DNA of 64,000 nt from Escherichia coli (GTDB taxonomy: Bacteria > Pseudomonadota > Gammaproteobacteria > Enterobacterales > Enterobacteriaceae), in the NCBI RefSeq assembly GCF_965641715.1, contig NZ_OZ282453.1. One strand, written 5' to 3'. Shown here one piece after another: positions 40,739-46,700 of the stretch. Position numbers: made by a program. Position 1 is the first letter of the stretch. Each line of letters starts with the position of its first letter.

Positions 40739-43700
40739 TGACACTAACGCCCGCACATTGCTGCGGGCTTTTTGATTCATTTCGCAAATGTGCTGACATT
40801 TTCCCCTCTAATCCGTACCATACACGCCACAGTTTTTATATCAGATTTCTTATGCTGGGCGTTCCGGCATGACGCATACTCTTCTGATGCCATATAACGA
40901 ATTGAGTCGCTTTTAAATGTCGCAAAATCAAGAAATTAGCAAGAAAGAACAATACAATCTGAACAAGTAAGGGTAAAAATCACAACTATCTGACGAACAA
41001 TGTTTTTATAATTTTTTCAACATGTTAGACAGGATGAACATCTACAATAAAGCACAATAATCTACACTTTTTTTGCCCCATTTTTGCCCCTTTTACGGCC
41101 TTTTGTCCCATTTTTGCCACAGTAAAAATCTATAACTAATCAATCTGTGATCTGCAATTTGCGCCCATGAATTCTTTCCAATAGAATCAGTTCCGGCTGG
41201 AATCATTAAATACCCCCACAGTCGAAAGTTCCCTAGCCAACTGCCGCCGTTCTTACATATGACGTACTGCGGCTATGTTTTTCAATCTGTAGCTGTGCTG
41301 GTGAATTATGAGCAATCTGAATCCATGCATGACGTGTGGTGCCTGTTGTGCATTTTTCCGCGTCTCTTTTTACTGGGCCGAAGCCGATGATGCTGGCGGT
41401 ACTATCCCTGCAAGGCTCACAGAACAAATATCCCCTTTTCACCGATGTATGAGCGGTACCAATCAGAAAAATCCCCGCTGTGTCGCTCTGGCAGGCACTC
41501 CGGGCAAAAATGCCTGCTGCACAATATATGACAATCGTTCGTCCACATGCAGAGAATTCGCCATGTCTGGTGAGAACGGAGAAGCCAATGAGGCGTGCAA
41601 CAGAGCAAGGGCTAAATATGGGCTGGACCCGCTATAAATATACGACAATTGTAAAGCCCGACTGTTGTAACAGTCGGGCTTCATTTATTACAGCTTCTCT
41701 GCTTTTTTATTCTGTGAAACCTGGTTCATCTGGCCACACAATATCCGGTGCTACTGATGTATCAACACGGTTCAGCAACACCCGATACTTTTTCCAGGTT
41801 GTTACCAGACTCACATTCGTTCATTAATATGTCCTGTGATTTGCGTGCGGTGAGGTAGCCTTTTCCCAACCTCACCATCATCCGGCAATTTGTATTTATC
41901 ACAAACGGCCTGTATCAGTTGTCTGTTGCACCAACCATACCCGCAAATTTGAGCCATTGTCCTGATGGACTTCTGTTACCGCGGTAGTGATAAACAAGGA
42001 TTGCATTTGTTACTCCACCATAGTCAGCTTTATGTGATGTGGTTAAGCGAATTGTATAATCACCATCGGGCAGGTTAAAAACTTCAATTACAGTCCCTGC
42101 TAATTCAACCGCTCCAAACCCCGTTATATTGTTGATGCTGCCCGCATTGAATCCCATCATATCGCCAAAACCAATCCAGTACTTTTTGCTGAACGCACCA
42201 TTTGACCTCAGGTGGTTAATAAATGTGGACATACTCATGCCCATTTCGCCGCCAGTTATGGCTGATGTACGTACCGAAATACTTGGCAGAGCACTACTCT
42301 TCACATAAGAGCTCAGAAGATTTATGACTTCTGTTTTCGTATAAGCATTAACGTTAGCCGCAGTCAACGTTATATCCGCAGTGCCATCAAACTTCACACC
42401 AGCAATTTCCCTTGCAGTCTGCAATTTCGTGGCACTGGCTGCGTTACCCGTTGTATCCTGATTGCCTGCCGCATTCACCCCCGGGATCAAATCTTTTACT
42501 GTATAAATCTGCGCCCAGTCCGACTCAAACCCATACTCATCCCGTGAGGAACGATAAAACAGCCCACCATTTTTATAATTGGCCCTGATTTGCAACGTCC
42601 GGCAACTTCCACCCCCTGTATAGAAGTTTGCAACAATATAGCTGCTGCCTGTCCGGGTGACATTGTATGCACCAGATTTGGCATTCCACGGAACGCCTCC
42701 CTCTGACTCTGCGTGCACACCGGACGATCCAAGAGCAAAAGCAGAGACATCTGCAGCGGACAGCCTGATGTCTGATTTCAATGCCTTACCATTCACCTTA
42801 CGACCAGATGGAACCCGGTCATTTGCATTATCATTCACCGCTTTCACCGCCATTGGTGTTGCCGCCAGCGATTCACTGTCACTGTCCGTGGCACTGCTGA
42901 GCTGTACCACCCCCTTTCTCGTCGTGCTCGCATCCTCTAGCGCCACGGCAGATGCAATATCCTCTGCCCGTTTTGCTGCTGTCTCGGCACGCGTTGCTGC
43001 AGATTCCGACGTACTTTTGCTCTGAGCTGCCGCTGTCGCACTACCAGCTGCCTCTGTCGCCTTCGTGGATGCCGTCGTGGCACTGACCTTCGCCTCTGAC
43101 GCCTGTCTTACCGCCTCATCTTTTGAAGCAGACGCCGATGATGCTGATGACGCCGCCGAACTGGCGGACGATGCGGCTGCCGTTTCTGAGGCTCCTGCGC
43201 GGGTTTCCGACGCTTTCGCATTCGTCTCAGATGTCTTCGCTGCGGAAGCAGAACTCGCAGCTGCAGTGGCCTGTTCAGTGGCTTCGCCAGCCTTCGTTGT
43301 GGCTGTTGAAGCGGACGATGCAGCGCTTTCTGCCGATTTTCCGGCGGCAGCGGCACTGGCTACAGCCTCCCCTGCCTTCACTGATGCCTCACGGGCCGAT
43401 GATGCAGCCGCGGTTTCTGAGCCTGCCGCAGCTGAGGCACTCTGTCCCGCTGCCGTTTCAGAAGACCTGGCGTTCGTCTCGGACGTTTTTGCCGCTTTCG
43501 CGGAATTGCCTGCCGCTGTTGCCGAGGAAGCTGCGCTACTGGCGCTCGAGGATGCGTTCGTTTCTGATGATTTTGCCGCCTCTTTTGAAGCCGCCGCATC
43601 CCGGGCTGAGGTGGCAGCTTCTGACGCTTTCGTAGTCGCGGTGGATGCAGAAGTGGCTGCTGATTGTTGTGACGCTGCCGCATTCGTTTCTGACGTTTTC

Positions 43701-46700
43701 GCGGCACTGGCACTGGTAGCTGCCGCGCTTTTTGAGGACTCTGCAGCGGCAGCACTTTTTGATGCTTCAGTGGCCTTTGTTGATGCCGTTCCTGCGCTGG
43801 AAGTCGCTGACTGAGCCGACGACGCGGCCTGTCCGGCTGACGTGCTGGCTGCGCGTGCTGAGTCCGCAGCATCAGTCGCATGGGTTGCCGCCTCACGGGC
43901 TGATGTGCTGGCATCACTGGCTGACTTCTTCGCGGCTGCCGTGTTCTGTGCCACCACGGACGCGTTACGCGCCACCTCTTCCACCATCAGCTCAAAACGG
44001 CGCAGTGCCTCCGGACGGGCATCATCCTCCGTCATGGCACCGAGAAAATCATTCAGCGTACCGGGTCGGGAATCTTCATACACGGTGATGGTCCCGGCAT
44101 GTGACGGCGGGAATCCTTCCACCAACAGAATAACGCTGTACTGACCGTACTCAACGTCCATGCTGTAACGCCCGGCTTCATCCGGATTTTCTGAGGCCAG
44201 CGTGTTCACCACCACCGTGGTACTGTTACGTTTTGCTTTCAGCTGGATTGTGCAGTTCTGTACCGGTTTTCCTGTGCCGTCTTTCAGTACACCTGAAATC
44301 TTTACTGCCATATTCACCCCACAAAAAAGCCCGCCTGAACCGGCGGGCTGTCATAACACTGTGTTACCTGGCTAATCAGAATTTATAACCGACACCCACG
44401 ATGAAACCGTCAGTGCGCCAGTCACCACTGCCGGAGCCTTCATAAGCGACATCAATGGCCACGGATTCGGTCGGGTTAAACTGCACGCCAGCCCCCCACG
44501 CCAGAGACGTGTTGCTGTGGCGACCGTCATCACTTCCGGTCAGCACGTCGTGCGTTTTCCCCTTGTTATCAGTTACGCGGAGATAATCCCCGGAAAAAGT
44601 CGACACACGGCTGTAAGCCACACCCGCCATCGCATACGCGCTGAACCATTCATTCACGCGCACAGACGGCCCCGCCATCACGCTGAACCAGCGGTTACGC
44701 ACGGAATCTTCATGCCAGCGGGTATCGCTGTAACGGGTCAGCTGGCGATTCTTGTCTCCTGCATAGCTGAACGACGTCACCATCCCCAGTGTGTCCGTAA
44801 ACTCATAACGGTATTTCACGTTAATCCCGTTCAGATCATCGCTGCCGGGGACGTTCGTCGAGGCATGAAGATAGCCCGCGCTCAGCGTGGACTGATGTTC
44901 AGACGCCCATGCAGGCGCACAGGATGCGGCCAGACAAATGGCTGCGGACAAAATGGCGGCATAAAGTTTACGCATAATTACCTCTCGCTTTTCTGCAATA
45001 AAAAAGGCACCATTTCTGGTGCCCTTATCTGGGTTATAAATATTTCAACGGATACTGATACCGGAAGCCGCTTTTTTGGTCACTATCACCGTACAGTCTG
45101 TGATGTTACCTGCACCCTGATTGCCTTTCTGGAAAATCCTGAACTCCAGGGTGACGTTCCCACCACCACTCGGCATATCAATAACCGCGCTGTAACTCCC
45201 GGGAACTGCCCCTCTGGTTTCTCTGGATGCGATTAAGACACCGTTTTTGCGAACTTCAAAACCATAACCCGTGTACCTTGTACCTCCCGGGTTATTACCG
45301 CTCCCCGGATTGTCATACGCCACACCGTTAAAAATAATGGGCGGAATAATGATTTGACGGTCAAAGTTATGATCATCGCTGATGGTGACGGTAACCGTCC
45401 CGTCGGGTGTTTCCGTGTTCCCCCACGTACCGACTTTTTTCGGGAAGGCTTTTGATACAGCTTTAACGAAATCTCCTCTGACCTGGGTCGCCTCCAGCAT
45501 GCCCTTAATCGTACAGTTCTGGTTAATCGTGACATTGTTGAGCGTTCCTGAGTTCGCATTCACACTGCCACTGATATCCGCATTTTTCGCCGTCAGTCTC
45601 CCGTCTGGTGTCAGGGAAAATGCCGGCGGATTTCCACCGCTGGTAATGGTGGGAGCCGTCAGGCGTTTCAGGAACACGTCGTTCATGAATATCTGATCGC
45701 CCTGACCAACAAACATCGGTTTTGTGTTGCCATTCGCAGGATTAACCATCGCAATCCTGTCCGCCGCCAGCAGCACCTGACTCTGCATGCCGTCAGGGGT
45801 GTTCTCAATACCGGCACCAATACCCGCGATATAAAGGCGTCCGTCCTGCATCTGCTGCAGCTTCACAGCCCACATGCTGTTCAGGTTATTATTTGTATCA
45901 ACCTGAACCTTCTGTATCTGCTGAATTGCAGCACTCTGGTCTTCCAGTTTCTTATTGACGGTCTGCGTGATTTCATTGCTGACATCCGTAATGGACGTCC
46001 TGATTTCAGCCAGGTCAGGCGCAAGCTGACCGTTATCAATCTGCGTCCACAGCTCCTGAGCCAGATGGGTTTTCCCTATCTCGCCTTTGAAAAAATCCAG
46101 ATAACCGGATGCATCATCACTCGGCTGACCAACAGCCTCCACGAATGCCGATTTGCCAACGGTGTTCACACTGCGGATATAAAAGTAATAATCATGGCCC
46201 GGTTTGATATTGATACTGGCGGCTATCCAGTACAGCGCCGTGCCAAGATAGCGTGCTGTGGTTTCAACCTGCCTGATATCCGCAATCCGCTTTTCCGAGA
46301 ACCAGAACTCAAACTGTACCGTCGGATCATAAACCGCAAGATGCGGCGTGGCGGTTATCTGAAAATAGCCCGGCGTCAGCTCAATCCGCGACGGCGCTGC
46401 CGGTGCGGCAATCCGGAACGATACCGACGCCGGATCGCCCTGCTGCCCCCACGCATTTACTGCCCGGACTGTCAGCCTGTAGTTCCCCAGCGCCAGTTGT
46501 GTGAAGCGGTAAGTGGTTTCCGTCGTCCGGGCCGTGCTGACCAGCCACTCACTGCCGTCATCCGCTGTTACGGTCAGACGGAGCAGGAAGCTCACGCCCT
46601 TCACCACCTTCGGCGTGTCCCAGCGCGCCAGCACCTGATATTCCCCGCTGTCTGCGGTGACTTCGGCAGTCAGGTGCTGCACCGCTGGCGGCGTGACACC

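Follow-up and report, generated by a model that had tools for sequence, protein, structure and literature searches.

A lambda-like side tail fibre of Escherichia coli that ends in a phage-plasmid-type bead and probably acts without Tfa

Introduction

How might the side tail fibre of a lambda-type prophage have a working tip when no intact gene for a tail fibre assembly protein (Tfa) follows it? This question is raised by the stf gene within a stretch of 64,000 nucleotides of the Escherichia coli chromosome (RefSeq assembly GCF_965641715.1, contig NZ_OZ282453.1), here called the window, which covers the neighbourhood of the Rac site, where sister strains carry related prophages. As summarised in PMC9608196 with reference to work on Mu Tfa, Tfa contacts the fibre tip through its variable N-terminal domain, and trimerisation is the role of its conserved C-terminal helices.

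The explanation we favour, with a probability of about 0.62, is that the window Stf is a mosaic fibre with a self-sufficient terminal bead, termed X, and that a Tfa-dependent tip and most of tfa were lost in one replacement. Judged from its sequence, the tip of this fibre is probably functional and Tfa-independent. The terminal X bead would form a self-sufficient trimeric end that presents a receptor-binding surface and keeps the C-termini of the three chains in register in the absence of Tfa. This interpretation is based on the fibres of SSU5/pLF82-type phage-plasmids, which end identically and encode no Tfa. Genomic context and conservation suggest that the tip folds without a chaperone, that X binds the receptor and that the prophage copy in the window is functional.

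Results

Modular architecture of the fibre

The stf gene can be divided into the following parts, given from the whole gene to its C-terminal end.

41915-44311, minus strand: stf, side tail fibre gene, intact, 798 codons plus stop
43910-44311, minus strand: Stf residues 1-134, prophage tail fibre N-terminal domain for tail-tip attachment (PF08400, E = 9.8e-72)
42947-43954, minus strand: residues 120-455, Ala/Ser/Thr-rich heptad shaft, lambda-like by DNA homology
42746-42946, minus strand: residues 456-522, collar motif KGVVQLSSATDSDSESLAATPMAVKAVN, within which the lambda homology ends
42500-42745, minus strand: residues 523-604, Y bead, equivalent to Mu S' 323-406 and P7 gpS 811-891
42320-42499, minus strand: residues 605-664, linker repeat (GNxxTTGNAASATKLQTAR..GVxFDGxADITLT) and short helix
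41918-42319, minus strand: residues 665-798, X bead as C-terminal tip

Translation starts at an ATG preceded by a lambda-like ribosome-binding site (GGGGTGA), which yields 798 amino acids (aa); an alternative GTG at 44317 would yield 800. A sequence-only reading of the window had proposed that Stf begins like its lambda counterpart, and the PF08400 domain together with 72% identity to lambda orf-401 over residues 1-404 confirms this. In a Pfam-A scan of the whole of Stf no domain besides PF08400 was detected, and neither Stf nor the YkgJ-like protein encoded next to it matched an NCBIfam family above threshold. The same reading had expected a distal part unlike lambda, and this also holds: BLASTP of Stf against lambda orf-314, the distal half of the lambda fibre, gave no match, DNA homology to lambda stops at 42832 (approximately Stf residue 493), and strong full-length identity to lambda Stf was not found, the similarity being confined to about residues 1-495. 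The protein thus resembles a lambda side fibre in its PF08400 domain and in the position of its gene after J and lom, and differs from one in lacking an orf-314-like distal region and an intact downstream tfa. The predicted quasi-repeat shaft of about 300 residues was found to comprise 336 residues with 73% Ala, Ser and Thr. Its residue autocorrelation peaks at multiples of seven, which indicates a heptad coiled coil; Tandem Repeats Finder detected no DNA-level tandem repeat in the shaft, so that repetition exists at the protein (heptad) level only.

The distal part had been considered novel, a view that has to be given up because its modules are known from the Mu S', P1 Sv' and P7 Sv fibres. 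A phmmer search of Stf against the PDB returned a single entry, 8JU3 (E = 4e-35), which a figure legend in PMC11821841 describes as phage Mu gp52, the G(-) fibre S'. The Y bead matches 8ju3_A 323-406 (phmmer domain E = 7e-21) and shares 48% identity with P7 gpS, and the X bead, at Stf residues ~689-782, corresponds to 8JU3 218-309 (phmmer E = 1.2e-8), leaving only ~10-18 residues between its last strand and the end of Stf. A tblastn search located the distal modules in P1, P7, D6, RCS47 and SfMu, where they belong to the invertible Sv/Sv' segments and show ~39% identity, and the collar motif is common to P7 gpS (residues 187-254) and the fibre of the phage-plasmid Cyrano. The linker region of relatives carries precomputed PF03406/PF21446 matches, and the linker repeat in the window Stf is probably a sub-threshold match of the same kind. 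Precomputed matches to both PF03406 (Phage_fiber_2) and PF21446 (Gp34_trimer) are present in one protein (P0010) whose last 135 residues are identical to those of the window Stf.

The beads are arranged differently in the two settings. P7 gpS has the order X (707-793), Y (811-891) and an 84-residue tip (892-975), followed by the gene of the U chaperone, whereas the window Stf runs Y, linker repeat, X, stop and lacks the ~84-residue tip. Compared to Mu S', P1 Sv' and P7 Sv, with which it shares homologous Y and X beads, the window system further lacks U/U' (apart from a tfa remnant), an invertible segment and an invertase, and it belongs to a lambda-like siphovirus backbone, whereas theirs is that of a myovirus. 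The predicted protein is a three-way mosaic, being lambda-type in its proximal part, Mu/P1-type in its beads and phage-plasmid-type at its terminus.

In relatives the same gene has been annotated differently. In three comparison loci (L001, L002 and L005) the stf reading frame is intact, yet the RefSeq annotation by the Prokaryotic Genome Annotation Pipeline (PGAP) lists a pseudogene "missing C-terminus" that covers the first 500 codons only (L001 5114-6613, L002 5081-6580, L005 5894-7393) and leaves ~1 kb of coding sequence unannotated in each of them. This pseudogene call is an artefact of evidence-based annotation.

The C-terminal end and its relatives

An end directly after X could be either original or the product of truncation. 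Stf residues 664-798 served as query in a HMMER search, exhaustive over 1.84 billion cluster representatives (50% clusters). Seven close relatives were obtained at E < 1e-30, six of which are full-length (241-1,302 aa) and the seventh a 105-aa fragment; X lies at the extreme C-terminus in all six close full-length representatives. In ~120 distant relatives (~35% identity) X is mostly internal and followed by a conserved ...YSPGWRRxYNTKNKPT... motif. The profile phrog_6722 aligns to Stf through its own last position (810-974 of 974, E = 1.8e-57). From the lengths of 974 and 975 residues this profile had been taken for P7 gpS, which was ruled out since it ends in X and represents the Cyrano-type family.

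Among phages, the fibre of Cyrano (plasmid pLF82 of E. coli LF82), 1,341 aa long, is the nearest relative. It shows 79% identity over the last 302 residues and shares the end residue with the window fibre (...GATDN* and ...GATSN*). The terminal-X end also occurs, at ~87% identity, on 73 PLSDB plasmids of 100-125 kb. For Cyrano, the part of PMC9928086 that deals with its induction reports DNase-protected genomes 32-fold above background, a 39-fold induction by ciprofloxacin and SSU5-like siphovirus particles in transmission electron microscopy. Since the Stf C-terminus matches the fibres of virion-producing phage-plasmids to the residue, it is no arbitrary truncation, and the predicted end is the native one. 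Moreover, three lineages (the window group, E. coli A10 and the Cyrano type) part exactly at the stf stop codon, as expected if only recombinants that keep the end of the gene survive.

Measured against the terminal-X family, the window fibre has X at the end of the protein, as the profile has, and no downstream tfa except for a pseudogene remnant; its backbone is not that of an SSU5-like phage-plasmid. With the SSU5/pLF82-like fibres (Cyrano CYRAN_21; phrog_6722) it shares the terminal order Y-linker-X, the last residue, the absence of a downstream tfa and part of the shaft (85% over residues 208-522). In contrast, Cyrano has another phage backbone and another N-terminal attachment domain, its fibre carries extra beads, and a lysis cassette instead of a tfa remnant lies downstream of the fibre gene.

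Exchange of the tip and loss of tfa

The following features are found at and behind the end of stf.

41799-42523, minus strand: replacement cassette relative to strain LR-21-1, 725 bp, containing the end of Y, the linker, X, the stop and ~116 bp
41818-41914, minus strand: spacer between the stf stop and the tfa remnant, of untraced origin, present only in the same module (L001, L002, L012)
41707-41817, minus strand: tfa 3' remnant (pseudogene), with an in-frame TGA upstream at 41821-41823
41654-41681: hairpin with a 12-bp stem, between the stf/tfa-remnant unit and the ykgJ-like gene (RNA fold -23.8 kcal/mol, z = -5.4)

It had been stated that no tfa follows stf and that ~280 bp of non-coding sequence separate it from the convergent gene. 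An intact tfa is indeed absent and 277 bp separate the stf stop from the end of the convergent YkgJ-family gene, but this gap is not empty, as it holds the tfa remnant. This remnant shows 72% identity to lambda Tfa residues 160-191 and 91% identity to residues 162-195 of the Tfa of LR-21-1 (hidden Markov model, E = 5e-11). It covers only the last ~32-36 residues of Tfa, i.e. the conserved C-terminal helix, and the N-terminal fibre-binding domain is absent, so that the two domains which together make up a Tfa protein are not both present. The remnant is a pseudogene, since ~32 codons are left, an ATG is missing upstream and a weak GTG is the only conceivable start; PGAP labels its equivalent in relatives "tail fiber assembly protein, missing N-terminus". 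Between 41640 and 41915, where a tfa-like reading frame with an unusual start had been considered, only this N-terminally truncated remnant was found, and no other Tfa-like sequence was detected across the 64-kb window. Weak tblastn matches to Tfa at 12114-12485, on both strands (E = 0.009 and 0.36), are chromosomal, lie far from the prophage and are probably noise. A 28-mer from the spacer gave no exact match in viral or metagenome contigs. The hairpin at 41654-41681 is a probable bidirectional terminator.

How the tfa gene was lost can be seen by comparison with LR-21-1. This strain and several enterotoxigenic E. coli (ETEC) strains carry the same prophage end with an 843-aa Stf, an intact 195-aa Tfa and the same ykgJ-like gene. 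The LR-21-1 system (WP_338390048/WP_338390047) occupies the same chromosomal site with the same flanks (uspF, ykgJ-like gene, lom and J). Its Stf shows 83% identity to the window Stf through residue 604, the end of the Y bead, which is thus present in both proteins; unlike the window Stf it then continues into a lambda-type His-rich tip and has kept its Tfa. At the DNA level, homology to the LR-21-1 locus (L014) is restricted to 44400-42524 (84%) and 41798-41600 (99.5%). The break at 42524 and the resumption at 41798 indicate that the 725-bp cassette replaced a lambda-type tip and the 5' part of tfa, standing in for ~1.2 kb that encode the Tfa-dependent tip and tfa codons 1 to ~165. A single recombination event would have swapped the tip and these first ~165 codons for the cassette. 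Considering the roles of the Tfa domains as outlined in the cited part of PMC9608196, such an event removed exactly the partner-specific parts of both proteins.

Like lambda Stf/Tfa, the window has stf after J and lom, PF08400, a heptad Ala/Ser/Thr shaft, a collar and the same ribosome-binding site and start context, with the 3' end of tfa still recognisable; unlike lambda, its distal ~300 residues share nothing with orf-314, the His-rich tip is missing and tfa is reduced to ~32 codons. In a prophage next to potB (L012 663-2438) the terminal linker and X are 100% identical to the window at the protein level, and the fibre has a different bead (…LRIAYGSYGFFIRNDGSNTYFMLT…) where the window has Y. 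An identical linker plus X behind a different bead places the cassette boundary at the linker. Overall, the linker-X cassette was found on at least four different upstream shafts.

What follows terminal-X fibres

An intact tfa was found after none of the terminal-X fibres in all contexts examined. These contexts are of four types:

Window, PEC41, EC416, ETEC1731/1747, CV839-06, RM10740 and a contig next to potB: ~100 bp after the stop, then the tfa remnant
Cyrano, two related NCBI contigs (L008, L009) and ten IMG/VR loci: holin, endolysin and spanin after the fibre stop
E. coli A10, prophage at dusA: a YgiW/YdeI-family cargo gene after the fibre stop, homology to the window breaking at the stop
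L010, L011 and L031 (65%-identical X): a 168-aa open reading frame (ORF) with a lipoprotein signal peptide, phrog_9559, after the fibre stop

In the whole 108-kb genome of Cyrano no Tfa was detected by annotation, tblastn or a small Tfa hidden Markov model, and no candidate gene is common to the flanks of terminal-X fibres across the four context types. Two genes were considered as chaperones and rejected: the 167-168-aa ORF after the fibres P0013 and P0014, which has a lipoprotein signal peptide and no similarity to Tfa, and the gene 3' of a distant terminal-X fibre (P0067), which is another fibre gene. In contrast to the terminal-X fibres, the internal-X fibres inspected (P7 and a Mu record with S, S', U and U' genes) have U/U' alongside. 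In P7, in the C(+) orientation, the chaperone gene after Sv is broken into two pieces, Ua (93 aa) and Ub (83 aa) (L004 5173-5706), and U' on the other strand is intact (177 aa).

The lipoprotein gene is itself conserved (L010 7964-8470, L011 1671-2174, and downstream of 3393 in L031). Its family phrog_9559 has no assigned function and could represent a moron or a superinfection-exclusion protein tied to this tip type. In EC416 (L002 1907-3948) a prophage at the prfC site carries the same stf and tfa remnant, and among its downstream cargo are genes for a TIR-domain protein, part of a reverse transcriptase and a Din-type invertase with a frameshift; this fibre-end cargo may be a defence island.

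Spread and selection

The stf reading frame is intact in all eight copies examined, which occupy at least four chromosomal sites, indicating that the module has spread between prophages. For Stf residues 540-798 the ratio of nonsynonymous to synonymous substitution rates (dN/dS) is 0.08 relative to Cyrano and L008 (dS ~1.1-1.2) and 0.12 relative to L009. Judged by these ratios, the module is under purifying selection. Carrier genomes come from pigs or feral pigs in six of seven cases, several of them being ETEC, and the seventh is from a wood-wren; this bias may reflect host-lineage specificity or sampling.

Discussion

Several observations weigh against a functional, self-sufficient tip. The strong dN/dS signal stems from the long branch to the phage-plasmid copies, while among the prophage copies dN/dS is 0.29-0.47 on ~20 substitutions, which is compatible with recent relaxed selection. 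The module is rare: among 5,426 complete E. coli genomes, 7 carry it. Since loss of Stf need not abolish viability in lambda-type phages, the apparently intact late operon of the window prophage is no proof of a working fibre. An AlphaFold model of three linked copies of residues 619-798 is of low confidence (mean pLDDT 45, pTM 0.29). The host genome extends beyond the 64-kb window, and Tfa proteins of other prophages may be encoded there. Finally, the evidence for Cyrano in the cited part of PMC9928086 covers virion production and not infectivity or fibre function.

Some of these points would equally fit decay, in which an illegitimate recombination or deletion destroyed the tip and tfa and the open frame persists only through recency, the fibre being non-functional or unassembled. 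A truncated tfa pseudogene directly downstream of stf, the rarity of the module, the dN/dS of 0.29-0.47 among prophage copies on few changes and the dispensability of Stf are all in line with it; lambda PaPa carries a frameshifted stf, which is visible in our comparison as the split into orf-401 and orf-314. We nevertheless regard decay as improbable, because it does not account for a C-terminus that matches the fibres of virion-producing phage-plasmids to the residue, for reading frames intact in every copy at different chromosomal sites, or for junctions lying exactly at the stop codon in three lineages. A chaperone acting in trans, be it the Tfa of another prophage, an unrecognised phage gene or a host chaperone, deserves slightly more credit and is still unlikely. 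E. coli usually carries several stf/tfa loci (median of five matching places per genome), which may lie outside the window, and U/U' do serve the internal-X fibres of Mu, P1 and P7. On the other hand, the N-terminal domains of Tfa are described in the relevant part of PMC9608196 as specific for their own tip, and the region bound by U/U' in Mu and P7, i.e. the last ~84 residues after Y, is absent from the window Stf. Cyrano-type elements are devoid of a Tfa gene, and it is improbable that a transmissible phage relies on an unlinked prophage gene; the lack of a shared candidate gene beside terminal-X fibres likewise speaks against an unrecognised linked chaperone.

The sequence-only reading had offered a chaperone module within the distal domain as an alternative, which would correspond to a C-terminal assembly domain that cleaves itself, as known from endosialidase and T5 pb1 fibres. 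This did not prove tenable and is very improbable: the Pfam-A scan shows neither an S74 (Peptidase_S74) nor any other domain at the C-terminus, searches of PHROG and the PDB revealed no such domain, X occurs inside Mu S' (8JU3) as a structural bead, and the few residues after its last strand leave no room. Nothing specific speaks for it, as the two weak matches that carry PF13884 share only the ~35-residue linker repeat. Equally far-fetched, or slightly more so, is an invertible segment, in which a Din-family invertase would switch between two tips, the distal part being one of them, as is the case for Mu G, P1 C and e14 P. The homology of the distal modules to the Sv/Sv' parts of invertible fibres and the frameshifted invertase gene after the tfa remnant in EC416 would fit such an origin, but the window contains no invertase gene and no second tip or chaperone on the opposite strand, and around stf there are no significant inverted repeats and no gix/cix-like core nearby, which rules it out for the present locus.

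When these alternatives are taken into account, a mosaic fibre with a self-sufficient terminal X remains the explanation that we prefer. A more general proposal would be that linker plus X forms a portable, self-trimerising, Tfa-independent receptor-binding end that can be transferred to shafts of unrelated kinds, among them lambda-like and SSU5-like ones, with the present locus recording tip exchange and chaperone loss in one event; we consider the odds of this proposal to be even. It should be stressed that shuffling of tail-fibre modules is already well known as ordinary phage mosaicism, and that the locus is not a categorically new system.

Genomic setting

The prophage is of lambda type and its right end lies on the minus strand in the order J, lom, stf. 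The neighbouring genes are:

35143-38667: nifJ/ydbK, chromosomal flank together with ompN
40235-40741: uspF, chromosomal flank
41308-41637, plus strand: YkgJ-family cysteine-cluster gene, convergent with stf, annotated by RefSeq in L001 and L014
44376-44975, minus strand: lom (Ail/Lom family), upstream neighbour of stf
45045-48542, minus strand: J, central tail fibre

Judged by ORF sizes, the lambda-type late operon is apparently intact up to ~63841. The YkgJ-family gene is probable prophage-end cargo and occupies the same position in sister prophages with an intact tfa. Between the lom stop and the stf start, at 44324-44348, a GC-rich hairpin is followed by a T-run, so that stf expression presumably needs antiterminated late transcription. 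The ompN gene (39033-40166, plus strand) carries a single CAG-to-TAG nonsense change at codon 227 (stop at 39711-39713) and its protein is otherwise identical to the intact PEC41 allele, so that it looks like a very recent porin pseudogene; this candidate pseudogene adjoins the prophage with the changed fibre tip.

Conclusions

The locus represents a dated, junction-resolved case in which a fibre tip and its chaperone changed together. When fibres are retargeted for phage therapy, tailocins or delivery vehicles, each tip has to be transferred together with its matching chaperone, which makes the task harder. A chaperone-free tip that is found on at least four shafts would, if true, be a convenient engineering part, and if the terminal-X tip is indeed of this kind it would cleanly test the proposal that the essential role of Tfa is to register the C-termini of the fibre. 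Since RefSeq labels an intact stf as a pseudogene, automated surveys of receptor-binding proteins will miss this fibre type. The origin of six of the seven carriers from pigs hints at a possible host-range adaptation.

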